Origin: Prevotellaceae bacterium
Lineage (GTDB): Bacteria > Bacteroidota > Bacteroidia > Bacteroidales > UBA932
Assembly: GCA_031258755.1 (NCBI GenBank)
Contig: JAIRMK010000207.1
Location: 1 to 59,500, forward strand
Length of the DNA: 59,500 nucleotides
Direction of reading: 5' to 3'
Part shown: positions 1,694-17,205 of the stretch, piece after piece
Numbering within the stretch: the stretch's first letter is position 1
Layout of the letters: every line of letters begins with the position of its first letter
Notes under the pieces: generated by a model
Seen by the model: the letters and a program-made list of their open reading frames with translations, nothing else
Told to the model about the DNA's origin: nothing
Database searches by the model: none
Program-made: the position numbers and the translations under genes

Positions 1694-4600
1694 ATGAAAA
1701 GAAACATGTATGTATTTTTTTTGAAAAAGACCGGAAACTGTATGTTGCGAAGTCTTTTTTTTATGTTGTTTGGTATTGCATCGGCGTATGCCGCTGTAGC
1801 GGATGACAAACATCGTGTAACAGGATTTGTAAAAACCGATGCGGAGGAGACGCTTATCGGTGTGAGCGTGGCAGAGAAAGGCGCTGCAAACGGAACTGTT
1901 ACCCAGTATGACGGGAGTTTTTCGATTGAGGTATCAAGTCCCGCGGCCGTACTGGTATTCTCGTATGTGGGATTTGCCACTCAGGAAGTGCCGCTGAACG
2001 GTCGAACGGCATTGACCGTTATCATGGAAGAAAGCACGACCGGCCTGGACGAGGTGATTGTGGTGGCTTACGGCACACAGAAAAGGAGTTCGGTAACCGG
2101 CTCCATTGCCGTGGTCAAGGCGGAGGAGCTGAAAACGGTTACGTCGCCCAGTGTGAATACGATGTTGCAGGGAAAAGTGGCGGGCGTGCAAGTCGTAAAC
2201 ACGTCGGGGCGCCCCGGCGAGGCGGCCACTATCCGTATTCGCGGCAAAAGTTCGCTGGGCAGCGATGCTTCCATCGACCCCCTGTGGGTAATTGACGGCG
2301 TGATTTCGGGCACGGGCGCACAATTAAACCCTAATGAAATAGAAACTATCAGTATTCTGAAAGACGCTACGGCTACGGCGCTGTACGGCTCGAGAGCCAC
2401 CAACGGCGTAATTCTTGTCACCACAAAACGCGGGCAGGTGGGGGAAAACGTCTTCAATGCAAGTGTTAAATTCGGCGCAGCCACGCAGCATCTCGGCCGT
2501 TTCAAACTGATGGACGGCCCCGGTTTGTATGATTATACGGTCGGCATGCCGGGCGCTTTGACGCAATACGCATGGCTGGCCGATAAAGACCAGCTGCTGG
2601 CGCACAATACCGACTGGTTTGATTTCGCCACACAAACGGGCATCTCGCAAAATTACACGTTGTCGCACACATTCGGCGTCGAAAAGATACGCAACTTCTT
2701 CTCGCTCGATTATTATCAGGAGGAGGGGACGGTGAAGGGGTATGAATACGAAAGATTCAGCTTCAGGAACAACCTCGACTATACGCCCAACAGCAGGTTG
2801 ACGGTACATGTCAAAGTGGCGGGCAGCTACCGCGACACCGACGACCGGCAGCATTCCCTTTACAGCGCCATGAATTATTTGCCGTGGGACTATCCGTACA
2901 ATACCGATGGCACGGTGAGAACCGGGAAAGAAAACGGCATCAGCACCCTTGAGGACTGGCATGGCAGGGACATGAGCAACTACCTTTACAATAACCAGTA
3001 TGATTGGACTAAGGGCAAACAGATTGGCGTCAATGGCAACATCGGTGTTGACTTTAGAATTACCGACTGGCTGGTGTTTGAATCGAACAACAATATCGGC
3101 TTCCGCTTTTTCCGTGAAACAGTGTATTCCGACCCCCGTTCCATCGGCTCGGAGAGCACGGGCGGGCAGATTGATAACAATACCGACCTGGCCACCACCA
3201 AATACACCAATCAACTGTTGCGGCTGTATAAACTTTTTGCAGACAGGCACGCCGTCAGCGCTTTTCTCGGGTATGAATACAGCGACTATTTGTTTGAAAG
3301 CACCATCGCCAAGGGGCAATCCATACCTATTGACGGGGAAGTGCTGCGGGTGGCGGCAAAACCCTATGCGGTAGATGGGCTGAAATACGGGAATGCCACG
3401 CAATCGGTCTATTTCAACACCAATTATACCTACGACGACAGGTATAATTTCCAATTCTCCTACCGTTACGACGGTTCGTCGAAATTCGGCGCCAACAACC
3501 GCTACGGGAGCTTTTGGACGCTTGGCGCTGCCTGGTCGATTAACCGGGAGCAGTTTATGGAAGACATAAAATGGGTTGACCTGCTTAAACTCAGGGTTAG
3601 CTATGGGTCGATAGGCAACTCGTCGAGTTTGGGCAACTATTCCTACTTAAGCGTCTATAGCCTGAGCACCAATTATGCGGGCACGCCCGCTTCGTTCCCC
3701 AACGTGCTCGGCAACCCTGATTTGACATGGGAAAAATGTTACGAAACCAACTTTGCCGTCGATGCCCGTTTGCTGAACAGGCTGGACTTTACGATTGAAT
3801 ATTATATCAAAAACACCTCCGACCTGCTTTATTCGAGAAAACTCAGTTCGCTGACGGGCTACAACAGCCGGTACGAGAACGTGGGGGCCGTGCGGAACAA
3901 TGGCGTTGAACTTTCGCTTTCGGCCGACATTATTGCGCGCAGCGATGTGGTGTGGTCGGCTGGCCTCAACTTTGGATACAATACGAATAAAATTACCGAA
4001 CTGGCCAACGAAAATGCAGACCAGTTCCCGAATGACTACGGTCACCGTATTTTCCGCGTAGGAGAAGACCGCGACGTGTTCTATTTGCCCGAATGGGCGG
4101 GCGTGGATGTATATACGGGCGCCCCGCTGTGGTATGCGTATGATTCGACCACCGGCGAGCGCAAGGTGGTGACCGACCGTGCAAACGCTTCTTATGTGCT
4201 TACCGGTTCATCCACGCCGAAATTTTTCGGTGGCGTGAATACGTCCGTAAGCTATAAGGGAATTACCCTTTCGGCAATGGGGTCGTTTGTCGGCGGCAAC
4301 AAAATTTATCATTCCGCCCGGCAGTTCTATGACAACGACGGCGCGTACCCAACGTATAATACCCTGGATCTTTCATCGGGGCCTAACGGAAGTTGGGTGC
4401 GGTGGCAAAACCCGGGCGACATCGCCACGCACCCGCAAGCCATTTCCGGCGGCAACCATAATTCCAATGAAGCCTCCACGCGCTTTGTGGAAGATGGCAG
4501 TTACTTCCGGCTCAACAACGTAACCCTGTCGTATGACCTGCCCGAGAAATGGCTGAAAAAAGTAAAGCTCGGCCATGCGCAGATATACCTGACCGGCGAA

Positions 4601-4751: not shown

Positions 4752-6461
4752 ATGAAATTAACGATAATACCTTTAATAAAAATGCTGTGCTGCTTTTCGG
4801 TAGTGGCGCTGTTATTTGGCGGCTGCGATCTTGAACGGTTACCCTACGACGCTGTGGTGAATGAAGGAATGAGTATCGGGGAAGCCGAATCCGTTACACG
4901 GGGCACGTATGCCAAGATGAAAGAAGAATATTACTACAAAACCATTCACCAGGTCGGCGAATACGGCGGCGACAATATTTTACTCAGCGGAACAACGTCC
5001 GACCTGCTGTTCAATTTCTACCGTTATACACGTTCCACCGACAGTTATTACACCGCGCGCGTGTGGCTTTTCACCTACCAAATGATAGGGAACATCAACT
5101 CCGTGCTGTCCATACTCGAATCTTACGAAATGTCTGAAAGCGAGAAAGAATTTGTTGACCACCTCATTGGCGAGAACTTGCTGCTCCGGGCGTTTGCCTA
5201 CTTCAATTGCTGTAATATCTTCGGCCGTCCGTATAGAGACGCCAACGGCGCGGCCAATAATCCGGGCATTCCGATAAAAACGGTGACCGATATTGATTAT
5301 TTCCCGCCGCGCGCCAGCGTTGCCGAAGTATATGAGCAAATGATAAAAGACGCAACCCGCGCTGCACAAAAAATGAAAAGAAGTACTTCTACGCCGAAAA
5401 ACAACAACTACGTGACACAGGAAGTCGCCTGGGCGTTTCTCTCCCGTGTATATCTCTACATGGGACGGTGGGAAGAAGCCGAAGCCTACGCCGATTCGGT
5501 GATTAACTCGGGGCGTTATGCGCTGTTGCAGGGCGACCAGTATGCCAAATATCCGCAACACGTGCCGGAATCAAATTCCGAAACAATTTGGTGTATCCGC
5601 ATGGTGAAAGATGCCGACTTCGCCGATTATTACATGGATTGGTATTCCGTAGGCAGCTTATATTGCACTATCGATGAAATAGGCTGGGGCGAAATGTATC
5701 CTTCCGAATCTTACCTTACCCTGCTGCGGGAAAATCCTTCCGACCTGCGTTTCGCATTTATCGAAAACCAGCCGCACCCCGGTGGGGGACTGTGGATGGT
5801 TTATGTCAATGAGGCGAATAATCAGTGGACTTACGTGACAAAAGAGGTGGTGCAGGAAGGAAATGATTACCGTATTACAGAGTCAGCCAGTTCTTACACC
5901 AACCCCATTGTGCAGAAAGAAACAACCCCCGACGGAAAGATACAGTATTACGTAAATAGCGCGACTGGCGGCGGTACCCGTTACAATGTATGGATCGAAC
6001 CGAAATTGGAAGACAGAAACGGCTATCCCAAACGTTATATTCTCAAAACTTCGTATCAGGAACAACAATCGCAATTGTATTCGCCGGTGCTGTTCCGTTT
6101 GGCGGAAATGTACCTGACCCGTGCCGAAAGCCGGTGTCAACAGGGAGAATTACCGGAGGCCATTGAGGACTTGAATGTGATACGCAACCGTGCACAAATC
6201 CCCGAACGGCCACAATCTAATTCCGACGAAACCGTTCTAAAATGGATTCTCGACGAACGCCGGCTGGAATTGGCATGGGAAGCGCAACGCAAGTACGATA
6301 TTTTCCGTAATCAGGAAATATTGGACAGAAAATACCCCGGCACCCATTTGAGCGGTTCGCCGGTGTTGACAGAGCTTGCCCCCTCCGACCCGCGGGTTGT
6401 GGAATTTATTCCCAAGAGCGAAATCGACGCTTATCCGATAGAACTGCAACAAAACCCTTAA
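4752..6461 (+). CDS. SusD/RagB-family nutrient-binding outer-membrane lipoprotein (PUL 1)
   Basis: Lipoprotein signal (LLFGGCDLE). SusD-like strings LLRAFAYFNCCNIFGRPY, RLAEMYLTRAE, ERRLELAWE. Lies immediately downstream of SusC. Confidence 0.85.
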   Translation: MKLTIIPLIKMLCCFSVVALLFGGCDLERLPYDAVVNEGMSIGEAESVTRGTYAKMKEEYYYKTIHQVGEYGGDNILLSGTTSDLLFNFYRYTRSTDSYYTARVWLFTYQMIGNINSVLSILESYEMSESEKEFVDHLIGENLLLRAFAYFNCCNIFGRPYRDANGAANNPGIPIKTVTDIDYFPPRASVAEVYEQMIKDATRAAQKMKRSTSTPKNNNYVTQEVAWAFLSRVYLYMGRWEEAEAYADSVINSGRYALLQGDQYAKYPQHVPESNSETIWCIRMVKDADFADYYMDWYSVGSLYCTIDEIGWGEMYPSESYLTLLRENPSDLRFAFIENQPHPGGGLWMVYVNEANNQWTYVTKEVVQEGNDYRITESASSYTNPIVQKETTPDGKIQYYVNSATGGGTRYNVWIEPKLEDRNGYPKRYILKTSYQEQQSQLYSPVLFRLAEMYLTRAESRCQQGELPEAIEDLNVIRNRAQIPERPQSNSDETVLKWILDERRLELAWEAQRKYDIFRNQEILDRKYPGTHLSGSPVLTELAPSDPRVVEFIPKSEIDAYPIELQQNP

Positions 6462-7423: not shown

Positions 7424-9322
7424 ATGAAAAGTAAACATATTTTTTCTGACCTGTTGCTGTACGTATGTATAGCCGCAATATTCGGTATGGGTAGCTGTAA
7501 AGACCCCATTTATCCGGAAATCGACAAACCCGACCCCACCCGTTCGGGTATTAATGATATTGTATCATTCCATCTGGACCTCTCTCAATTTCCTGAATAT
7601 ACGGAAGGCGATGCGGCGAATGTGGTTATTGTTCCCGAAGCGGATTCTATCTATATTGAAGTGCCGTGGTATGCCGGCATCATTATGGCGCCGGAAATTA
7701 CGGTTTCGTCCAATGCCACCATCGCCCCCATATCGGGCAGCGTGCGTGACTTTTCGCAGGGAACGGTGATTTACACCGTCAGGGCCAATAACGGCGATAA
7801 AAAGGAATGGAAGGTCTATGTGAAATGGTTAGACGAGCCCGAGCCGCCGCTTAGCGATGACCCCCGCCGCCCACTCGAAGAAAACGACAAATATAAAATT
7901 CATAAGATACCGATTTATTCCAATGCCTATACTATTAGCGGAACAGGTATGTCCCTGTCTTCAACCAATGGTATAACATGGACAACGTCGGGCGCAACGG
8001 GTCTGGGGAGCATCTACTTCAATGTGCGGTATCATGGCGAACTGCAACTGGCCCTGCGCGGACGCGCCGGTAATGCCACCGGTGGCACTTTAAGAGTGAG
8101 GATATACGTCAATGAAGAACAATATGTGGAAAACGGCGAGCCTTACGACCATGCTTATCTTTATAAAAAGACCAATCAAACTACAGATACCCTCACCATT
8201 CACCGTATTCATTTGCCCGAAGTGCCGCAAGGCCATGCCGGCCATACGGTACGTATTGACCTCAGCGTAGAAGGCGCCCGCAACGGTAGTTACTACTTCC
8301 GGTTCCCCGAACTTTGGGTGTCGGGATGGGCCACGCGTGGAACAGGCGGTAAGGACCTTACAGGCCTTAACTGGGTTCCTTTAACCAATGAACATTTCGG
8401 ACGTCGCGGCCCGTCGGTACACATCAATATTGAAAAGCCCGCCGGCAACATGGAATATTTTTACAGCGAAGTGTTTATTCCGGAAGGGCAGGATAAGTTA
8501 GGCTCTTATTTCATGTGTAACGGTTTCGGACAGGGCTATGCCGGCATACAGGTGAACTCTGCTACGCAGCGCAGGGTGCTCTTCTCGGTGTGGTCGGCCT
8601 ATACGACCGATAATCCCGCACAAATGGGCAAATATGCGCCCCGCTTAGTCAGGGTGAACAATGATGCGGCATTCAGGAATACGATAACATATACGAAGTT
8701 CGGTGGCGAAGGTTCAGGTGGACAAAGTTATATGGTATATCCGTGGGTGGCTGGCCAAACCTATAAAATGCTTACCCGTGTGCGGCCTCACCCGCAACCC
8801 GAAAAATTCCCCAATTCTTCGCTTTACAAAACATGGTTCCACGATGGCGAAAAATGGATATTTATTGCAGAGTGGCGGCGTATAGAGCTGGATGCAGCCG
8901 ACAACAATGGCGTGGCGCCCACCACCAACTGGTACACCGGCGCCCATCACTTCCTCGAAAATTTCACTCCGAATGAAGGCAATAAAACCCGCTACGGCAC
9001 ATGGAACAACGATTGGTATATCAGCGCTGACGGTGAATGGTACGAAAGCGCTAATTACACCTTTACCAATGACGCCACCGCATCGGCCGGCGACCGGGTA
9101 GATTATGCCGGAGGCATATTGCCGCCCGGCGACCCGCAGGCAGGCGCCGTTTTTCTTAAAATGGGAGGCTATTTCACAGATAATGTGCCGGCGCAAACAC
9201 GATTCGTTAAATCGTTGCGAAACGATCGTCCGGCTATTGATTTTGCAGCGCTTAATGCGATGGGCACCGATGATCCGGCAGCAGATACAATGGTTGACGT
9301 CGGCGAACAATACGAAGAATAG
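7424..9322 (+). CDS. surface lipoprotein, DUF5077/DUF3472-like (function unknown; candidate PUL 1 enzyme)
   Basis: Lipobox IFGMGSCKD. N-terminal Ig-like segment. Central and C-terminal strings (RRVLFSVWSAYTTDN, GGEGSGGQSY, WYTGAHHFLENF) recalled as DUF3472-like. Assigned from memory only. Confidence 0.4.
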   Translation: MKSKHIFSDLLLYVCIAAIFGMGSCKDPIYPEIDKPDPTRSGINDIVSFHLDLSQFPEYTEGDAANVVIVPEADSIYIEVPWYAGIIMAPEITVSSNATIAPISGSVRDFSQGTVIYTVRANNGDKKEWKVYVKWLDEPEPPLSDDPRRPLEENDKYKIHKIPIYSNAYTISGTGMSLSSTNGITWTTSGATGLGSIYFNVRYHGELQLALRGRAGNATGGTLRVRIYVNEEQYVENGEPYDHAYLYKKTNQTTDTLTIHRIHLPEVPQGHAGHTVRIDLSVEGARNGSYYFRFPELWVSGWATRGTGGKDLTGLNWVPLTNEHFGRRGPSVHINIEKPAGNMEYFYSEVFIPEGQDKLGSYFMCNGFGQGYAGIQVNSATQRRVLFSVWSAYTTDNPAQMGKYAPRLVRVNNDAAFRNTITYTKFGGEGSGGQSYMVYPWVAGQTYKMLTRVRPHPQPEKFPNSSLYKTWFHDGEKWIFIAEWRRIELDAADNNGVAPTTNWYTGAHHFLENFTPNEGNKTRYGTWNNDWYISADGEWYESANYTFTNDATASAGDRVDYAGGILPPGDPQAGAVFLKMGGYFTDNVPAQTRFVKSLRNDRPAIDFAALNAMGTDDPAADTMVDVGEQYEE

Positions 9323-9332
9323 ACGTTGCCGT

Positions 9333-10526
9333 TTAATATAAAAAGCCAAACAGCCACAACGGAATTTTGTTGGAAAAGCCTATTTCGATGTCATCGGTGG
9401 CGATGAAAGCATTTTCAACAGTTGCAATTTGCCGGTTTGTTTTACTTTTTCCGCCTACTTCAAATACAAACGCATTGTCGATGGTAAAATCTCCTTTTTC
9501 TGCCGTGTTTACCTTGTGTTTTGTCCGCAACTGATTGGCAAAAAATGTTTCACGAATGTTACCGACATTTTCATTCCGCAAAGCAAGCGAGTGAATGATA
9601 TTTGTATTTTCGAGGTATATTTTTTGTGGCTTCGAGAGCGCTTGAAGCGTTGTTTTTGGTTCCGTAATACAATTGATTATGCCTGCTTTATCTAACAGAT
9701 ACAAATATTTCACCAAAGCATTTCGGTTAACTTCCACGATAGCGCTCAAATTAGCAATGTTTGGTGTGAACGGTACCATTTCAGCAATCGTAGCCAAAAG
9801 TTTTTTAAGCCTCAAAATTGTAGCATATTCAATTTTTTCTATGGCAGGCAAATCCTCGTCAAATGTTTTGTTTACGGATTTTTCTACACGTATTGGATAA
9901 GTTGTCTTATCTTCCTTGTAGTAAGGATAATATCCATATTCCAAATAATTTTTAAATTCGGGCAGTATTTTGATCTTTAGAACAATGTCCGCGGCGATTT
10001 TTCGGTGGTTTTTCACAATATCATCCAACGTAAGCACAGGCCATTCCATTTGTTTTTCATATTTTAAAAACTCCCTAAACGACAGGCCTTTAAGCTCATA
10101 AACAATGGCCCTGCGCGAAAAATCGACACTTGTATTGTAGATTTCGAGCATTGACGAACCGGTAAAGACAATGTGCATATCGGGATAACTGTCGTAAATA
10201 TTTTTGACTTCTATGGCCCAAGTCGGATAACGGTGAACCTCGTCTAAAAACAGGTGGGTACCGCCATACGAATAAAAATAATCTGCCAAGTCGAGCAACG
10301 AATGTTGTGTAAACCAGATATTGTCCAAACTCACATAAAGCGCCTTTTCTCGGTCAAAGAAGTTCTGTTTGATATACTGTAACATGAGTGTTGTCTTTCC
10401 TGTTCCTTTTGCACCGATAATGCCTATTAGCCGGTTGTTCCATGCAATATGGTCATATAAATATCGGGTAAAATTGATATTTGTAAATTGCATTAATCTG
10501 TCAAAAGTGATAATTATAGATTGCAT
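9333..10526 (-). CDS. orphan AAA+ ATPase (COG1373 / AAA_14 + DUF4143-like)
   Basis: Walker A GIIGAKGTGKTTLM and Walker B LFLDEVH. C-terminal GDFTIDNAFVFEVGGK resembles a D...ExK nuclease-fold motif. Confidence 0.75.
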   Translation of the reverse strand: MQSIIITFDRLMQFTNINFTRYLYDHIAWNNRLIGIIGAKGTGKTTLMLQYIKQNFFDREKALYVSLDNIWFTQHSLLDLADYFYSYGGTHLFLDEVHRYPTWAIEVKNIYDSYPDMHIVFTGSSMLEIYNTSVDFSRRAIVYELKGLSFREFLKYEKQMEWPVLTLDDIVKNHRKIAADIVLKIKILPEFKNYLEYGYYPYYKEDKTTYPIRVEKSVNKTFDEDLPAIEKIEYATILRLKKLLATIAEMVPFTPNIANLSAIVEVNRNALVKYLYLLDKAGIINCITEPKTTLQALSKPQKIYLENTNIIHSLALRNENVGNIRETFFANQLRTKHKVNTAEKGDFTIDNAFVFEVGGKSKTNRQIATVENAFIATDDIEIGFSNKIPLWLFGFLY

Positions 10527-10558
10527 TTTTTAAGTTATTTTGATAGTTATAAGATGCA

Positions 10559-10703: not shown

Positions 10704-10734
10704 TTTGTAAGTTCCGAAAATATAGCTATCTTTG
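10704..10734 (+). promoter_or_regulatory. Bacteroidota sigma-A type promoter for rplC
   Basis: TTTG (10704-10707), a 19-nt spacer, then TATCTTTG (10727-10734), about 62 nt upstream of the rplC ATG. Confidence 0.5.
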
Positions 10735-10796
10735 CAACCCGCTTTTTGTGCGGATATGTTTATATTTTTGAGTGATAAGTTATTAATTACAAACAA

Positions 10797-11420
10797 ATGC
10801 CTGGACTAATTGGAAAAAAAATTGGAATGACATCCATTTTCGGTGCCGACGGTAAGAACATACCGTGCACCGTTATCGAAGCTGGTCCGTGTGTAGTTAC
10901 GCAGGTGCTTACGGAAGAGAAGAATGGTTATGCCGCCGTGCAGCTTGCCTATGACGACAAAAAAGAAAAACACACCAGCGCGGGCTTAATAGGCCATTTT
11001 AAAAAGGCAAATACCACCCCAAAGGGCAAGGTGGCGGAGTTTAAAAACGACTTCGAGGAACCGGTGCAATTGGGCGACGTGATTACCGTAAGCGACGTGC
11101 TTCAAGAAGAAGACTGGGTCGATGTTACGGGTACTTCTAAAGGCAAGGGATTTCAAGGCGTGGTGCGCCGTCATGGATTTGGCGGTGTGGGCGGCCAGAC
11201 CCACGGCCAGCACAACCGTCTGCGCGCCCCGGGCTCCATGGGCGCCTCGTCGTGGCCTTCGCGCGTATTCCCCGGAAAACGCCTGGCCGGACGCATGGGC
11301 GGCGATCGAGTGAAAATATTAAACCTGAAAGTATTGAAGGTGATCCCCGAAAACAACCTGCTGTTGGTGAAAGGATCCATCCCCGGTGCAAAAGGGTCAT
11401 ACCTATTAATAGAGGAGTAA
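10797..11420 (+). CDS. rplC: 50S ribosomal protein L3
   Basis: [15 protein letters not shown]...[53 protein letters not shown] is classic uL3. Confidence 0.95.
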
Positions 11421-11426
11421 CGGACG

Positions 11427-12062
11427 ATGGAACTATCAGTATATAAAATCGACGGACAAGAGTCAGGGAAGAAGATTATCCTCGACGATACGGTATTCGG
11501 CATAGCGCCGAACGACCATGCCATTTATTTGGATGTGAAGCAGTACCTGGCCAATCAACGGCAGGGTACGGCGAAGACGAAAGAACGCAACGAAGTGGCT
11601 TATAGCACCAAGAAAATTGTCCGCCAGAAAGGCTCCGGCGGCGCACGCCACGGTAGCATCAAATCGGGTATTTACGTGGGCGGCGGTACGATTTTCGGCC
11701 CCAAGCCGCGTGACTACAGTTTTAAATTGAACAAAAAGCTCAAACAATTGGCACGTAAGAGCGCGCTCTCGATCAAAGCAAAAGACAACGCCATTATCGT
11801 GTTGGAGCAATTTACCCTGGAAGCCCCGAAAACATCGGCCTTTTTGGCGATTTGCAAAAATCTGAAATTTGAAGATCGCACGAAAGTGCTGTTGGTGCTT
11901 CCCGAAAATAACAATAACATCTATTTGTCGTCCCGCAACCTGCCGCGTGTAAAGGTAATCACATCTTCGGAATTGACTACCTACGACATTATGAATGCCA
12001 CCAACCTCGTGCTGGTGGATGCTACGGTGGAGGTATTGAATAAACAGTTGGGACACGCTTAA
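11427..12062 (+). CDS. rplD: 50S ribosomal protein L4
   Basis: [53 protein letters not shown] is the uL4 signature. Position after rplC. Confidence 0.95.
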
Positions 12063-12074
12063 AAAGATAGTCAC

Positions 12075-12365
12075 ATGGAAATATTAATAAGGCCATTAAT
12101 AACCGAAAAAATGACGATTCAGGGCGAAAAGTTGAATCGTTACGGTTTTGTAGTTGACCGCGCAGCCAATAAGCTGGAAATAAAAAAAGCGGTTGAGGAT
12201 ATGTACGGGGTTACGGTGAAAAATGTGAACACCGCCAACTACCATGGGAAACGTAAAAGCCGCTTTACCAAGGCGGGATTATTGACAGGCCGCGCCAATC
12301 ACTATAAGAAAGCGATTGTAACGCTGGCCGGAGAAGACAAAATTGATTTTTACAGCAACATTTAA
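12075..12365 (+). CDS. rplW: 50S ribosomal protein L23
   Basis: 96 aa. LIRPLITEKMT...KLEIKKAVEDMYGVTVKNVNT is uL23-like. Position between rplD and rplB. Confidence 0.93.
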   Translation: MEILIRPLITEKMTIQGEKLNRYGFVVDRAANKLEIKKAVEDMYGVTVKNVNTANYHGKRKSRFTKAGLLTGRANHYKKAIVTLAGEDKIDFYSNI

Positions 12366-12368
12366 GCC

Positions 12369-13193
12369 ATGGCAGTACGTAAATTTAAACCGATAACACC
12401 GGGACAAAGACATAAAATCATCAGTGCGTTTGATGATATTACCACCGGCACCCCTGAAAAGTCATTGCTGGCGCCGTTGCGCAAGTCGGGTGGCCGCAAC
12501 AATCAGGGTAAAATGACCATGCGCTACATCGGCGGTGGCCACAAGCGCATGTACCGCATCATCGACTTTTTGCGGAATAAAGACGGTGTGAAAGCCACCG
12601 TAAAAACAATTGAGTATGACCCGAACCGTAGCGCCCGCATCGCGCTGGTGCAATATGCCGATGGGGAAAAACGCTACATTATAGCGCCTAACGGCTTGAA
12701 GGTGGGACAAGACATTGTATCGGGTGCAGGCGTTGCGCCTGAAATAGGAAATACGTTGCCGTTGAATGAAATTCCGTTGGGTACGGTTGTGCACAATATT
12801 GAATTGCATCCCGGACAGGGCGCGGCTATGGCGCGTAGCGCCGGCACGTATGCCCAGCTTACGGCGCGTGAGGGCAAACATGCGGTATTGAAATTGCCTT
12901 CGGGCGAAACCCGCATGGTGCTTGTTACCTGTCGTGCCACGGTGGGCAGTGTATCCAACCCCGACCACAACCTCGAATCGCACGGTAAAGCCGGCCGGAA
13001 ACGCTGGCTCGGCCGCCGGCCGCGGGTGCGTGGTGTGGTGATGAACCCCGTAGATCACCCGATGGGTGGTGGTGAAGGACGCGCCTCAGGCGGACACCCA
13101 CGTTCGCGGAAAGGCATACCCGCTAAGGGCTACAAGACGCGTAACCCGAAGAAAACTTCAAAGAAGTTTATCATTGAAAAACGTAAAAAATAA
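12369..13193 (+). CDS. rplB: 50S ribosomal protein L2
   Basis: [40 protein letters not shown] and GHPRSRKG are uL2 signatures. Confidence 0.97.
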
Positions 13194-13215
13194 CCGGATA
13201 AACGAGAAATAAAAT

Positions 13216-13482
13216 ATGAGTCGTTCACTAAAAAAAGGCCCTTACATTCATCCCAGCTTGGAGAAAAAAGTGCTGGAAATGGCAGAAGGCAAGAAGAAAA
13301 AAGAAGTGATAAAAACCTGGTCGCGCGCCAGTATGATTTCCCCCGACTTTGTAGGACAAACCATCGCTGTGCATAACGGCAACAAGTTTATTCCGGTGTA
13401 TATTACCGAAAACATGGTAGGCCACAAATTAGGAGAATTTGCACCAACCCGTACGTTCAGAGGACACTCGGGCAATCGTTAA
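13216..13482 (+). CDS. rpsS: 30S ribosomal protein S19
   Basis: [11 protein letters not shown]...[51 protein letters not shown]. Confidence 0.97.
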
Positions 13483-13511
13483 TCATTCATCGTAAAAAAA
13501 GAAATCTCAAT

Positions 13512-13955
13512 ATGGGAGCTCGGAAAAGAGAAATGGCCGAAAGGCTAAAAGAAGCAAGGAAACAGACAGCCATCGCAAAGCTGAATAATGTTCCTACCTC
13601 ACCTCGCAAGATGCGCTTAGTCGCCGATTTGGTAAGGGGTGTTGAAGTAAACCGCGCCTTGGATATTTTAAGATATACCAAGAAAGAGGCTTCGGTTCGT
13701 TTGGAAAAGCTGCTCAAGTCGGCTATTGCCAACTGGGAAAGCAAAAACGAAAACGAGAAAAAAGAACTTGAGAACGGGAATATTTGCGTCACGCATATTT
13801 CTGTGGGTCAAGGCCGCACCCTGAAGCGTATCCGCACGGCGCCGCAAGGCCGCGCTGCACGTATTCGTAAACGTTCGAACCACGTTACGATTATTGTAGG
13901 GAAAAAAAGTGAGCCGGTAAAGTCAGAAACAGTAACAGAAACAGAGGAGCAATAA
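13512..13955 (+). CDS. rplV: 50S ribosomal protein L22
   Basis: [27 protein letters not shown]...[31 protein letters not shown] is uL22, with short N- and C-terminal extensions. Confidence 0.93.
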
Positions 13956-13956
13956 C

Positions 13957-14727
13957 ATGGGACAAAAAACAAACCCAATCAGTAACCGTTTAGGAATTAT
14001 TCGCGGCTGGGAGTCCAACTGGTACGGCGGCACGAAATATGCCGGCAAGATTTTGGAAGACGCCAAAATCCGTCAGTACCTTCTCGCCCGCTTGGCCAAG
14101 GCCAGCCTCTCAAAGATTGTTATTGAGCGTACGCTGAAGCTCATTACTGTGACCATTCACACGGCGCGCCCGGGAATTATTATCGGGAAAGGCGGCCAGG
14201 AAGTGGATAAACTCAAGGAAGAATTGAAGAAAATCACCAGCAAGGAAGTTCAGATTAATATTTACGAAGTGAAGCGTCCCGAGCTGGATGCCGTGATTGT
14301 GGCCAACAACATTGCCCGTCAGGTGGAAGGGCGCGTGTCGTACCGCCGTGCCATAAAAATGGCGATAGCCTCTACGATACGCATGGGCGCCGAAGGCATC
14401 AAAGTGCTGATTAGCGGCCGGCTGGGCGGCGCCGAAATGGCCCGCCGTGAGATGTTGAAAGAAGGCCGTACCCCGCTGCACACTTTCCGTGCCGATATCG
14501 ACTACGCGTTGGCCGAAGCGCATACCAAAGTGGGTGTGCTGGGTATCAAAGTGTGGATTTGCAATGGTGAAGTGTATGGCCGGCGCGACTTATCACCGAA
14601 CTTCGGTTCGTCGGCAATCAATGCCAATGTGAGTGGCGGACCGCAAGGCGGAGAACGTCGTCCGCGTGGCGGCCAGCGTGGTGGAGACCGCGACCGTCGC
14701 CGCTCGCGTGAACGAAAAGGAGAATAA
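13957..14727 (+). CDS. rpsC: 30S ribosomal protein S3 with an Arg/Gly-rich C-terminal tail
   Basis: [23 protein letters not shown], a KH domain ([17 protein letters not shown]) and [12 protein letters not shown]. Tail [30 protein letters not shown]. Confidence 0.95.
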
Positions 14728-14757
14728 CTTCCGGTTGGCTGGAAGACGAAATAATGG

Positions 14758-14806
14758 AAGAGGTGGCAATCTTAAGTGGTGTTTTTGCTGCCTCTTTTCT
14801 TTTTTA
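14758..14806 (+). terminator. putative intrinsic terminator after rpsC
   Basis: Stem aagaggtggca (14758-14768) pairs with tgctgcctctt (14786-14796): 11 bp including two G-U pairs, with a 17-nt loop. It is followed by ttcttttttt. Confidence 0.5.
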
Positions 14807-14956
14807 GTAGAATATTCAGTAAATTAAAAAGAGTTACAATTGATTTATTTTAAATTGGTTGTTTTTTTATATCTTGTATATTGTTTTGAAAATAAAGATT
14901 TTCAACCAATTAACGCAAAAACACACATAAGACACAAGAATTTTGTTGATAATTTA

Positions 14957-14988
14957 TTTGCAAATATCATTTTTTGTTAATATGTTTG
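14957..14988 (+). promoter_or_regulatory. Bacteroidota-type promoter for the AT-rich two-gene cassette
   Basis: TTTG (14957-14960), a 20-nt spacer, then TATGTTTG (14981-14988), about 58 nt upstream of the ATG at 15047. Confidence 0.45.
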
Positions 14989-15046
14989 CACTTCGCCCTG
15001 AGAAGACAAGAGATAAAAATCACATAATTTGAATATTAAATCGCTT

Positions 15047-15499
15047 ATGCTACTATATAGAATACTCTGTGCCGCATTATGGACAATTGCACTTTTGTTA
15101 TTTACTTATAGTGGATTAGTATTGGATGTTATATTTACAAAAGAAAATATTAACTTTGATGTAAAAATTGCCGATATTAATAATAATTTGTTTATGATCG
15201 CATCTAATTCAAGTATTGTAGTAATGCTTATAATTGATTTTTTCACCACGCAGTTTTTGTTTAAAAAGAATAGTAATTATAAATTAAAGGGTTTTATTAT
15301 TGGGGGATGGAATTTAACATGGATTATTTTAGGTTTTGTTTTAGCATTTATTTTAGCAGCTATTCCCCATATAAAAGGAGCCGAAAATGGAGTAATTGGG
15401 CACATTCATATTTCTTATGTGTTTGCTGTCTATGTTGTCATTTTATTTTGTCATAAGACACATTTATTACAAGTTAATCATATTAATAAACTAAATTAA
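15047..15499 (+). CDS. small integral membrane protein, about 4 TM helices, no recognised family
   Basis: The ORF-track start 15029 is TTG; the first ATG is at 15047. Hydrophobic spans: ILCAALWTIALLLFTYSGLVL, SSIVVMLIIDFFTTQFLF, FIIGGWNLTWIILGFVLAFILAAI, ISYVFAVYVVILF. Very low GC. Tightly coupled to the next ORF. Confidence 0.5.
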   Translation: MLLYRILCAALWTIALLLFTYSGLVLDVIFTKENINFDVKIADINNNLFMIASNSSIVVMLIIDFFTTQFLFKKNSNYKLKGFIIGGWNLTWIILGFVLAFILAAIPHIKGAENGVIGHIHISYVFAVYVVILFCHKTHLLQVNHINKLN

Positions 15500-15505
15500 A
15501 AAACA

Positions 15506-16024
15506 ATGTCACTATTAGTACTGTTGATATTTGGCATAATTGGCATAAGTTTCGCTTTGATGCTATTATTAGTGTGGATTTATAAAAAAAACATTATACA
15601 CGTTGACCGTGTGATTGCAGGAAGCACTTCTATAAATCACTCCGGTGCCGATGTTATTATTACGCCATTTGAGAATTTTTATAATGATAATAAGAAAGTT
15701 AAGTTGAAAGATTATACTATCAAGTGGGTAGATGGTATTTGTATGACGCCAAAAAACATTAACGACAAAGATATTGTATTTATCCGAGCATTTAAGAATA
15801 ATGAACAAAAAGTGGAAACAATAAAAAAAGGTGATGTTCTTTATATCGAGTATAAGAAAGATAATAAAATAATTCCTAAAATTAGAGAATTTTTGGAATT
15901 TGATGAACTTGGAAAATCTGCAAAAACATTTTATTATCTAAACGATGGATGTATACAAGAATCTAAATTTCCGCATAAAATAGATGATATAAAAGGTGTT
16001 GTCAAAATGGTATTTTCAAGATAG
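15506..16024 (+). CDS. N-terminally membrane-anchored protein with a putative S24/S26 (LexA / signal peptidase / TraF)-like domain; Cys at the nucleophile position
   Basis: TM helix LLVLLIFGIIGISFALMLLLVWIY. Then VDGICMTPKNINDKDIVFI, KKGDVLYIEY, IPKIREF and DDIKGVVKMVF, in the order expected for the S24/S26 fold. The fold assignment is by eye only. Confidence 0.45.
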   Translation: MSLLVLLIFGIIGISFALMLLLVWIYKKNIIHVDRVIAGSTSINHSGADVIITPFENFYNDNKKVKLKDYTIKWVDGICMTPKNINDKDIVFIRAFKNNEQKVETIKKGDVLYIEYKKDNKIIPKIREFLEFDELGKSAKTFYYLNDGCIQESKFPHKIDDIKGVVKMVFSR

Positions 16025-16071
16025 GGATTGGGGTACGCCTGTAAAAGCCTGTGTTTAGGTGTATAGTAAGG

Positions 16072-17205
16072 TTATATCCTTCTTTTTATATTGGCTTTAA
16101 ACCAAAGCCGGAAAACAGGGTCATTGAACGTAACATTTTTATCATTGATGTCAATGAGTTCTTTATTTTCCAAGGCTTCTTTCAACCGTTTCACATTCGC
16201 GGCAGTTCCCAATTGATATTGTTGTAAAATAGCAGTTTTCGTAAATTCGGAATGGACGCCATCGGCAATGGCTTGCAAAAAATTAAGCTGGTAAGCCGAC
16301 AACTCTTCCACATAGCGAAGATAAAGCATAGCATTTTGGTTCAACAACTCCACTACCGCCGATTCAAAAATATCAGGCGTCACGGTTTTAGCGGTTTTAC
16401 TCCAGATAATCCACGCCAATTGCTGCACATACGAAGAATGGTTTTCTACGGTATTGCAAATTTTTTCGGCGATTTGTGTGGAAATTTTTTTCCGGGTTAC
16501 CTGAAAACGTTCACAAATAAACGGTATCCAGTTAGAAGCAGGTATTTTCTGCAAGAAAAACACATCGCCGAATTTATAGAATGGCATACTTTGTCTCGAA
16601 AAAAGATTGGCCAATATATGTTTTTTGCTACCATAAAGACAATAAGAAACGTCGGGTTGTAATTGCCACACCGAACGTAATTTTTTTTGGAAAGACAGAT
16701 GCTCATCAAATTCCGCGACCTGCTGAAATTCGTCAATGCAAATAACGAGCTTAAATCCTTTTTCTGTGGCTATCCGTTGCGGTAAAGTCAATACCTCATC
16801 CGCCGATAGTTTTTTATCGGAAAAGTCAAACGTAATGGAAAAATCTCTTACCGGATCGGCGCCGATAGAGATTTTAAGCACTAAGGATGCCAGGAATTTT
16901 TTTGCATTTTCCACCCATTCCTGCCATTTTCCGGCAGTTTGTTTGACTACTTCCGTGGCGAAAAGGGTGTAAAATTCGTGGGCTGTCCGGCATGAAAAAA
17001 CATCAAGCGTTATGATTTTTAGTCGCCTGCCCTTGCCTGACAGCGCCGTTTTTTGTACCAATGAGGTCTTGCCCCACCGGCGTGGAGAAATGAGTATCGT
17101 ATTAATTCCATGTTTGAAATTAGCCAATAGACGCTTGGTGTCTTGTTCCCGGTCGGTAAATTGTTCACCGAAGGCTGTTTTACCGAAAGTAAACGGATTT
17201 TCCAT
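16072..17205 (-). CDS. orphan ATP-binding protein (archaeal-type ATPase, PF01637/COG1672-like) with a winged-helix-like C-terminus
   Basis: FTDREQDTKRL...ILISPRRWGKTSLV (Walker A) and LVICIDEFQQV (Walker B). C-terminal YQLNFLQAIADG...LKEALENKELID. Confidence 0.75.
   Translation of the reverse strand: MENPFTFGKTAFGEQFTDREQDTKRLLANFKHGINTILISPRRWGKTSLVQKTALSGKGRRLKIITLDVFSCRTAHEFYTLFATEVVKQTAGKWQEWVENAKKFLASLVLKISIGADPVRDFSITFDFSDKKLSADEVLTLPQRIATEKGFKLVICIDEFQQVAEFDEHLSFQKKLRSVWQLQPDVSYCLYGSKKHILANLFSRQSMPFYKFGDVFFLQKIPASNWIPFICERFQVTRKKISTQIAEKICNTVENHSSYVQQLAWIIWSKTAKTVTPDIFESAVVELLNQNAMLYLRYVEELSAYQLNFLQAIADGVHSEFTKTAILQQYQLGTAANVKRLKEALENKELIDINDKNVTFNDPVFRLWFKANIKRRI

Follow-up and report, generated by a model that had tools for sequence, protein, structure and literature searches.

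A horizontally moving two-gene cassette of Bacteroidales encodes a predicted membrane-anchored LexA-like protein with cysteine at the nucleophile position

Proteins of the peptidase S24 family, such as LexA, UmuD and lambda cI (MEROPS S24, PF00717), are the textbook examples of regulated self-cleavage (SOS response, prophage induction, translesion synthesis). To our knowledge, every characterised S24 member is soluble and uses a serine, and our literature searches turned up no S24 protein that is membrane-anchored or of the Cys type. Type I signal peptidases and the TraF/TrbI-type enzymes (S26) belong to the same clan SF, follow the same Ser/Lys-type dyad logic and carry an N-terminal anchor. 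Lambda RexA/RexB, in turn, is a prophage two-gene exclusion unit in which a small four-transmembrane (TM) protein is combined with a cytoplasm-facing sensor, and which is carried as a moron with its own promoter. Here we describe a two-gene cassette in a 59,500-nucleotide stretch of DNA from a Prevotellaceae bacterium (GenBank assembly GCA_031258755.1, contig JAIRMK010000207.1, positions 1 to 59,500 of the forward strand; hereafter the window). The first open reading frame (ORF) of the cassette, ORF1, encodes a predicted four-TM inner-membrane protein, and the second, ORF2, a predicted single-pass membrane protein of 172 amino acids (aa) with an S24-like domain and a Cys at the nucleophile position. 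The ORF2 family itself is undescribed; it is an S24 variant in which an anchor replaces the DNA-binding domain and a Cys occupies the nucleophile position.

In comparison with LexA, UmuD and cI, ORF2 has the same predicted fold, a predicted cytoplasmic location and the same order of motifs, namely V-x-A-G, G-x-nucleophile-M-x-x-x-G-I-x-x-G-D, a G-D/Q-hydrophobic strand, a Lys and I-x-G-x-V. However, Cys replaces Ser in 93 of the 99 relatives whose alignment underlies all residue counts given here, a near-invariant His157 and an invariant Arg127 are present in addition, and the spacing between the cleavage site and the nucleophile is longer. Where LexA and cI have a DNA-binding domain and UmuD a free arm, ORF2 has a TM helix, and in contrast to these proteins it almost always occurs with a multi-TM partner gene. 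With the S26 enzymes ORF2 shares the clan, the dyad logic, the N-terminal anchor and a similar size, but its predicted topology is opposite, its matches to S26 are weaker than those to S24, an internal Ala-Gly is conserved, and a secretion or pilus context is lacking. The likeness to RexA/RexB would be one of analogy, both being pairs borne on mobile genetic elements that combine a four-TM protein with a (for ORF2, predicted) cytoplasm-facing sensor under their own promoter; there is no sequence or fold relationship, and the ORF2 sensor would be membrane-tethered and protease-like. Like phage morons, the copy of the cassette in a phage contig (L002) has its own promoter, lies between conserved genes and has a G+C content below that of its flanks, but the cassette also has copies outside phages, on chromosomes and in a Bacteroides element that bears RteC.

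Fold, topology and predicted self-cleavage layout of ORF2

ORF2 lies at 15506..16024 on the plus strand. Gene callers start it at Met19 (154 aa), which removes the TM helix; a full N-terminal hydrophobic helix is present in 92 of the 99 relatives, and therefore the 172-aa reading is correct. When the two window proteins were compared directly with Pfam, NCBIfam, PADLOC and PHROGs, nothing meaningful was found, and a search of the PDB with a three-sequence profile returned only noise. The relatives were more informative. Pfam Peptidase_S24 (PF00717) was matched by 34 of the 99 at E<=1 (best 2.5e-6), and the Ser-bearing members P0065 and P0070 reached 25.9 and 26.2 bits against an S24 gathering score of 23.3. 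The next family, Peptidase_S26 (PF10502), was matched by four relatives (best E 0.0017) and not by the window protein. A search of all PDB sequences with the 99-sequence profile gave LexA or UmuD as the best 20 matches (best E 0.0014), and hhalign against LexA, UmuD, cI and DinR, a small reference alignment of four sequences, gave probabilities of 84-90% with E of 2e-6 to 7e-6. AlphaFold yielded a model with a predicted local distance difference test (pLDDT) score of 95.8 and a predicted template-modelling score (pTM) of 0.86 from the 99-sequence alignment; a model from three close sequences (pLDDT 41) was not used. When the former model was compared with the PDB by Foldseek, LexA, UmuD or lambda cI took each of the first 19 ranks, with probabilities of 0.94-1.00, nearly all 1.00, and with a target-normalised template-modelling score of ~0.6 for isolated C-terminal-domain chains; no signal peptidase appears among the top 50. 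In the viral models (BFVD), the best matches are HTH-S24-type (helix-turn-helix) phage regulators. The C-terminal domain of ORF2 is thus modelled with the LexA/UmuD/lambda cI (peptidase S24) fold, and ORF2 is a distant branch of S24.

The TM helix comprises residues 2-28 (15509..15589, plus strand) and is modelled as a helix by AlphaFold with pLDDT >94. In the 92 relatives with a clear helix, Lys and Arg together average 0.07 in the segment preceding the helix, compared with 2.47 over the 12 residues that follow; the number is higher after the helix in 86 of the 92 and lower in none. Because of the positive-inside rule applied to these helix-flanking charges, the S24-like domain is predicted to be cytoplasmic, with the short N-terminus directed outward (N-out, C-in). 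Such a placement fits both LexA/UmuD-like sensing of the cytoplasm and a reduced cysteine. An earlier note on this DNA, made from the sequence without database searches, had likened ORF2 to TraF-type enzymes; this part of it was not upheld, since the charge distribution puts the domain in the cytoplasm and S24 exceeds S26 in every search.

LexA cuts itself between Ala84 and Gly85 with the catalytic dyad Ser119/Lys156 (PMC3834820). The ORF2 family has a predicted self-cleavage site at Val36-Ile37-Ala38-Gly39 (15611..15622, plus strand), ~10 residues past the TM helix, with Ala38-Gly39 as the putative scissile bond (codons 15617-15622). Val36 is found in 68, Ala38 in 95 and Gly39 in 97 of the 99 relatives, and an extended hhalign alignment places V-x-A-G on LexA V82-A-A84-G85 and C79 on S119. 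This near-invariant V-x-Ala-Gly just past the helix had been overlooked in the earlier reading. The nucleophile motif G77-I-C79-M80-T-P-K-N-I85-N-D-K-D89-I90 (15734..15775, plus strand; Cys79 is the TGT codon 15740-15742) was aligned to LexA G-M-S119-M-K-D-I-G-I-M-D-G-D by both HMMER and hhalign. The Ser nucleophile in G-x-S-M is a defining S24 feature; in window ORF2 its place is taken by Cys79. Besides the prevailing Cys, position 79 is Ser in five relatives and Tyr in one, and around it G77 (90/99), M80 (94/99) and I85 (91/99) are highly conserved. Since position 79, apart from the single Tyr, is occupied only by Cys or Ser, a working nucleophile rather than a structural residue would be expected there.

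The predicted general base is the Lys of Lys125-Ile-Arg127 (15878..15886, plus strand), with K125 in 96 and R127 in all of the 99 relatives. K125 lies 40-55 residues past position 79 (mode 44; about 37-43 is expected for S24). Counted from the conserved Gly of the G-D-[IV]-L motif, this Lys follows after 14 residues in 40 relatives, which equals the spacing of G142 and K156 in LexA, and after 16 in 41 relatives; the window protein, with two extra hairpin residues, is among the latter. Other conserved columns are G-D at 88-89 and 109-110, T141, S153 and G164. Taken together, the predicted site, nucleophile and base of LexA/UmuD/cI self-cleavage are all present in order, with Cys in place of Ser. 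Most of what the earlier note had read from this protein agrees with the results above: its S24/S26-type fold is supported by Pfam matches of the relatives, the PDB profile search, hhalign, AlphaFold and Foldseek; its Cys in place of the catalytic Ser aligns with LexA Ser119; its quoted motifs are present, with Cys79, Lys125 and Gly164 nearly invariant; and the Lys of IPKIREF, which it had compared with a general base, is the conserved Lys125 and may well have that role. Two more residues are as conserved as the predicted dyad and have no catalytic counterpart in LexA, namely Arg127 (15884-15886) and His157, which lies in an S-S-x-P-H context (15974..15976, plus strand; His in 95/99). His157 is not a LexA catalytic position, and a Cys-His arrangement would be conceivable as an alternative.

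The gene pair and its family

The block at 14807-16050 is very poor in G+C. In 300-nt windows, G+C is 0.25-0.30 from ~14700 to 16050, against 0.57-0.61 at the rpsC end (0.49-0.61 across rpsC) and 0.37-0.54 downstream; the means are 27.3% for the two-ORF cassette, 50.2% for the left flank and 44.4% for the right flank. The rpsC gene (13957-14727) is followed by an intrinsic terminator (14759..14805, plus strand) with a 10-bp stem (14759-14768 / 14786-14795), a 17-nt loop and a T-run, and this terminator marks the left insertion boundary of the cassette. A Bacteroidetes-type promoter is located at 14957..14988 on the plus strand, with a -33 TTTG, an N20 spacer and a -7 TATGTTTG. Of the pattern TTTG-N19-21-TAnnTTTG, 1.29 occurrences would be expected in the window; five are found, each just 5' of a gene start, and both promoter elements are conserved in the Prevotellaceae copy L001 and the phage copy L002. 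A scan for sigma-70 promoters and terminators is uninformative for a Bacteroidetes genome, and Rfam and tRNA scans found no RNA genes in the block. ORF1 and ORF2 are separated by 6 nt. The sharp drop in G+C after the rpsC terminator, the promoter at 14957-14988 and the two closely spaced ORFs (150 aa with four hydrophobic spans, 172 aa with one TM helix), as described in the earlier note, are therefore all seen again here, and its picture of a tightly coupled two-gene membrane cassette of foreign composition stands.

ORF1 (15047..15499, plus strand) encodes 150 aa if read from its ATG, a start codon also conserved in L002, or 156 aa from a TTG at 15029. Its four hydrophobic spans peak at residues 1-19, 48-66, 91-109 and 116-134, and F19, Y21, D64 (within TM2) and K137 (just past TM4) are invariant among nine homologues. 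No related family was found for it in Pfam, NCBIfam, PADLOC, PHROG or the PDB. A small multi-TM gene is located directly 5' of ORF2 in all but one of ~17 distinct loci, so that a multi-TM partner gene is almost always encoded directly upstream of ORF2. At 14 distinct loci this gene is a detectable ORF1 homologue (window, L001/L003, L002, L004, L005-L008, L009-L014, L016/L017, L018 and L097), and at two further loci (L099/L100; L098) a different 4- or 5-TM protein takes the position of ORF1. Whether the two ORFs co-occur elsewhere had been raised beforehand, and the pair does recur. Three copies depart from the usual arrangement. In L015 (582-1094), ORF2 stands alone with a promoter-like box of its own and without ORF1; in L014 (612-907), ORF1 is frameshifted and split over two frames; and in L011 (1574-1951), ORF2 is truncated at 126 aa.

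Among 1.84 billion representative proteins, an exhaustive HMMER profile search found 101 relatives of ORF2 at E<=1e-3 and 27 at E<=1e-10, nearly all of 155-195 aa and sharing only about 25-40% identity. A word-indexed protein search recovered for ORF2 the window protein and two JGI relatives (83% and 62% identity) and for ORF1 only two relatives. The public names in the family are all 'hypothetical protein', e.g., MBS4812940.1 from a Bacteroides metagenome-assembled genome (MAG), and the ORF2 family is unannotated, without a Pfam model of its own. Scans of IMG/VR with close and wider alignments found no copy of the cassette; of two metagenome scans, the first gave none and the second seven short contigs. 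In pairwise comparisons among the window, L001 and L002, the ratio of nonsynonymous to synonymous substitution rates (dN/dS) ranges from 0.16 to 0.31 in ORF1 and from 0.24 to 0.29 in ORF2; dS reaches ~1. These values indicate that ORF1 and ORF2 are real genes under purifying selection. The very low G+C, an annotation that never goes beyond 'hypothetical protein' and the lack of a direct Pfam match for the window proteins might suggest chance open frames in AT-rich intergenic DNA, as the earlier note had considered in the form of spurious ORFs. However, the purifying selection, the more than 100 relatives, the very confident model and the conserved promoter and start codons all speak against this, and because of the dN/dS values, the family size and the model we regard it as already refuted, with a negligible probability left to it.

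Genomic contexts and mobility of the cassette

The cassette is self-contained and moves horizontally, being inserted in differing genomic and mobile-element contexts. Its G+C content is below that of its flanks in 11 of the 12 loci compared, and the twelfth, L012, has too little flank; at one locus the genome has 58-64% G+C and the cassette 43%. L001/L003, which derive from a Prevotellaceae MAG, share with the window the location of the cassette after the rpsC terminator. Three further loci (L021, L022 and L024) encode an identical S19 protein and have nearly the same rpsC terminator but lack the cassette, and the sequence after the terminator is unrelated: L022 has a convergent PFK gene there, and L024 and L021 differ again. 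Over rplB-rpsC, the cassette-free L024 is 95.8% identical to the window and the cassette-bearing L001 94.5%; L024 is closer to the window than L001 is, and therefore the cassette is present or absent among close relatives, a polymorphism for which the earlier note had suggested a check. After its rpsC terminator, L024 (3900-4309) carries a 31% G+C segment with short TTAAGAATTA / TTAACTCTTAAC-type repeats in both orientations and no long ORF.

In L001, the cassette is flanked by a 59-nt direct repeat (9256-9314 and 10472-10530, 93% identical). The left boundary segment of the window (14807..14866, plus strand) is homologous to this repeat: the window segment upstream of the cassette scores 69 against the L001 copy DR1, compared with a null of 27.5+-4.6. 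The downstream segment scores at the null, and the window therefore keeps only the left copy. Direct repeats also flank the cassette in L013 (23 nt; 15-37 and 1170-1192) and in L018 (36 nt; 6304-6339 and 8240-8275), the latter containing a promoter-like TAnnTTTG box. The repeats of the three loci differ in sequence and length, and may be a clue to how the cassette is inserted. Reading the 59-nt repeat as an integron attC was rejected, as there are no RYYYAAC / GTTRRRY core sites, the repeat is on both sides and there is no integrase.

In the phage contig L002, the pair is flanked by the C-terminus of a GpA-type terminase large subunit (Pfam 1.7e-14, phrog_15 1e-23) on one side and the head-tail adaptor Ad1 (phrog_2545 1e-19) on the other. 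Of 62 related IMG/VR phage contigs, 39 have a gap of -7 nt between terminase and adaptor, 22 one of 98-113 nt, and one a 723-nt gap with a different small gene; in L002 the gap measures 1373 nt. The L002 copy is thus a classical phage moron with its own promoter, whereas the window copy is chromosomal. A related phage, L030, has another insert at the same junction (3271-3995) with a 99-aa Cys-rich ORF (3424-3723), and therefore the terminase/adaptor junction is a moron hot spot.

The most widespread member of the family, P0106, is found in 174 contigs (331 index blocks), and in Bacteroides its block has the order RteC, HTH_17, a 147-aa ORF, an ORF1-like gene, an ORF2-like gene and an IS256-type transposase. 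This block has three different right-hand neighbours, one of which consists of SIR2-pAgo (PADLOC E=0), a WYL regulator and a PDC-S68 helicase. The segment 2732-8277 of L008, which lies ~1.5 kb from the cassette on the far side of an IS256-type transposase, resembles a defence island, with a split SIR2-pAgo (PADLOC pAgo E=0), a WYL regulator and a PDC-S68-type helicase. The L018 copy adjoins two PDC-S01 candidate-defence ATPases.

Several neighbours of the window copy were also considered. The convergent gene at 16072-17205 (minus strand) encodes a 377-aa ATPase whose ATPase_2 and AAA_14 matches are weak and below the Pfam cut-offs, and which has a weak PADLOC mad8 match (8e-4); at other loci it is unlinked to the cassette. 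The earlier note had counted this orphan NTPase as a neighbour of the module. In L001, a Por_Secre_tail gene occupies its position, so the NTPase is not a conserved partner of the pair and was rejected as a third component. The rplC-rplD-rplW-rplB-rpsS-rplV-rpsC block (10704-14805) has its own promoter (10704-10734) and terminator, with no rpsJ before it and no rplP after it. The same shortened block is found in L001 and L021-L028, and therefore the S10 operon is split in this Prevotellaceae lineage, with a variable site after rpsC. On the other side of the block, a gene at 9333-10526 (minus strand) between a SusD-cluster gene and rplC encodes an AAA_14 + DUF4143 ATPase (PADLOC PDC-S01, E 1e-26); in L001 there is only a 149-nt gap at this place, so that accessory insertions border the ribosomal block at either end.

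Proposed function and alternative explanations

The cassette, carried as a phage moron, on a conjugative element and at chromosomal hot spots, would act as an accessory conflict module. Our proposal, which we hold to be somewhat probable, is that this mobile two-gene cassette encodes a self-cleaving membrane switch within such an accessory or conflict module. On a trigger, the Cys79-Lys125 dyad would cut the Ala38-Gly39 bond and free a domain of ~15 kDa from a 38-residue membrane stub. As in LexA, UmuD and cI, the trigger might be a RecA filament or a signal of DNA damage; a different stress or infection cue would also be conceivable. This release would alter the state of the ORF1 protein in the membrane or that of the freed helix, and the outcome might be membrane permeabilisation of the Rex or abortive-infection type, or the exclusion of incoming elements. 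A more specific version, which is possible but which we hold to be distinctly doubtful and which would make the cassette the first of a new class of sensor-effector conflict modules, is that ORF2 is a natural LexA-like membrane autoprotease with a Cys-Lys dyad and the first thiol member of the S24 clan, and that its self-cut upon a DNA-damage or infection signal arms the four-TM partner or the 38-residue helix, leading to membrane collapse or to the exclusion of phages or conjugative elements in gut Bacteroidales.

Several observations weigh against this proposal. Window ORF2 has no match to Pfam S24 even at E<=10, and the E-values for single PDB sequences are borderline. hhalign aligns the Lys stretch with low confidence, the spacing from Ala to Cys is 37-49 residues (mode 45) compared with 35-38 in LexA, UmuD and cI, and three relatives lack Lys125 yet retain the Cys and Ala-Gly. 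In addition, the conservation of His157 equals that of Cys79 and is unexplained, and the link to RecA would be a pure analogy. As to the role in conflict, neither ORF1 nor ORF2 has a PADLOC 2.0 match at E<=10 and the ORF1 homologue of L005 has none at E<=0.001, neither window protein matches PHROGs, and tblastn searches of the INPHARED phages (50,697 records) and PLSDB plasmids (72,556) found no match to the family. Many copies sit amid housekeeping genes, and the defence reading draws on a handful of neighbourhoods without statistics.

Other functions of the pair have to be weighed against the self-cleaving switch. ORF2 might be an S26 signal-peptidase or TraF-type enzyme, whose periplasmic domain would cut ORF1 or a secreted or pilin-like substrate in trans. 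An N-terminal anchor with a clan-SF domain of ~145 aa is in keeping with the TraF/SipS size class, the four weak Pfam Peptidase_S26 matches among the relatives point the same way, and BFVD ranks 8 and 15 are a phage 'putative signal peptidase I' and 'SipA'. However, the charges around the helix predict the N-out, C-in orientation in 86 of the 92 relatives and the opposite one in none, the S24 matches outnumber the S26 matches by 34 to 4, and the top 50 PDB fold matches are free of signal peptidases. The conserved V-x-A-G, which aligns to the LexA scissile bond, would have no role in an S26 enzyme, and most copies are not flanked by conjugation or pilus genes, so that we regard such an enzyme as quite improbable. 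A catalytically dead S24-fold scaffold, which would bind or regulate ORF1 and in which Cys79 would be structural, as in a protein like SipA of Streptococcus pyogenes, also seems unlikely, though a little less so. Cys is not the canonical nucleophile of the clan, Lys125 is missing from three relatives and one has Tyr79, but position 79 is otherwise always a nucleophile-capable residue, and no fewer than 95 of the 99 relatives retain each of Lys125, Ala38 and Gly39 despite about 25-40% identity, as would be expected for a working dyad and its substrate bond. The Ser90Cys thiol form of Escherichia coli leader peptidase is reportedly active, which was also weighed against a dead scaffold. On the other side, a non-catalytic clan-SF homologue is reported (PMC4049620).

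The pair might also consist of a toxin acting in the membrane and its labile antitoxin, or be a holin-like lysis timer; it would then stabilise or serve its own element and not defend against phages. ORF1 or the ORF2 helix would be the toxin and the self-degrading S24 domain its inhibitor. The tight two-gene operon with its own promoter, its presence on a phage, on an element resembling an integrative and conjugative element (ICE) and as orphan chromosomal copies, the decay seen in the frameshifted ORF1 of L014 and the truncated ORF2 of L011, and the small four-TM ORF1 with an intramembrane Asp could all be accommodated in this way. However, there is no endolysin or spanin nearby, the phage copy lies between terminase and adaptor and not in a lysis module, and the solitary ORF2 of L015 would be odd for an antitoxin, though only if ORF1 is the toxin. 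We give this possibility a low probability, much like that of the dead scaffold; a lysis cassette in particular was considered unlikely from the position in the phage and the absence of an endolysin. The present evidence does not separate a toxin or holin from a defence function.

The self-cleaving membrane switch, if real, would carry the LexA principle beyond transcription to the membrane and would provide a testable case of nucleophile exchange in the Ser-Lys clan. Little has been mapped of the defence and exclusion systems of Bacteroidales, in which phage and ICE-like elements carry the cassette, and defining the ORF2 family alone would improve annotation.

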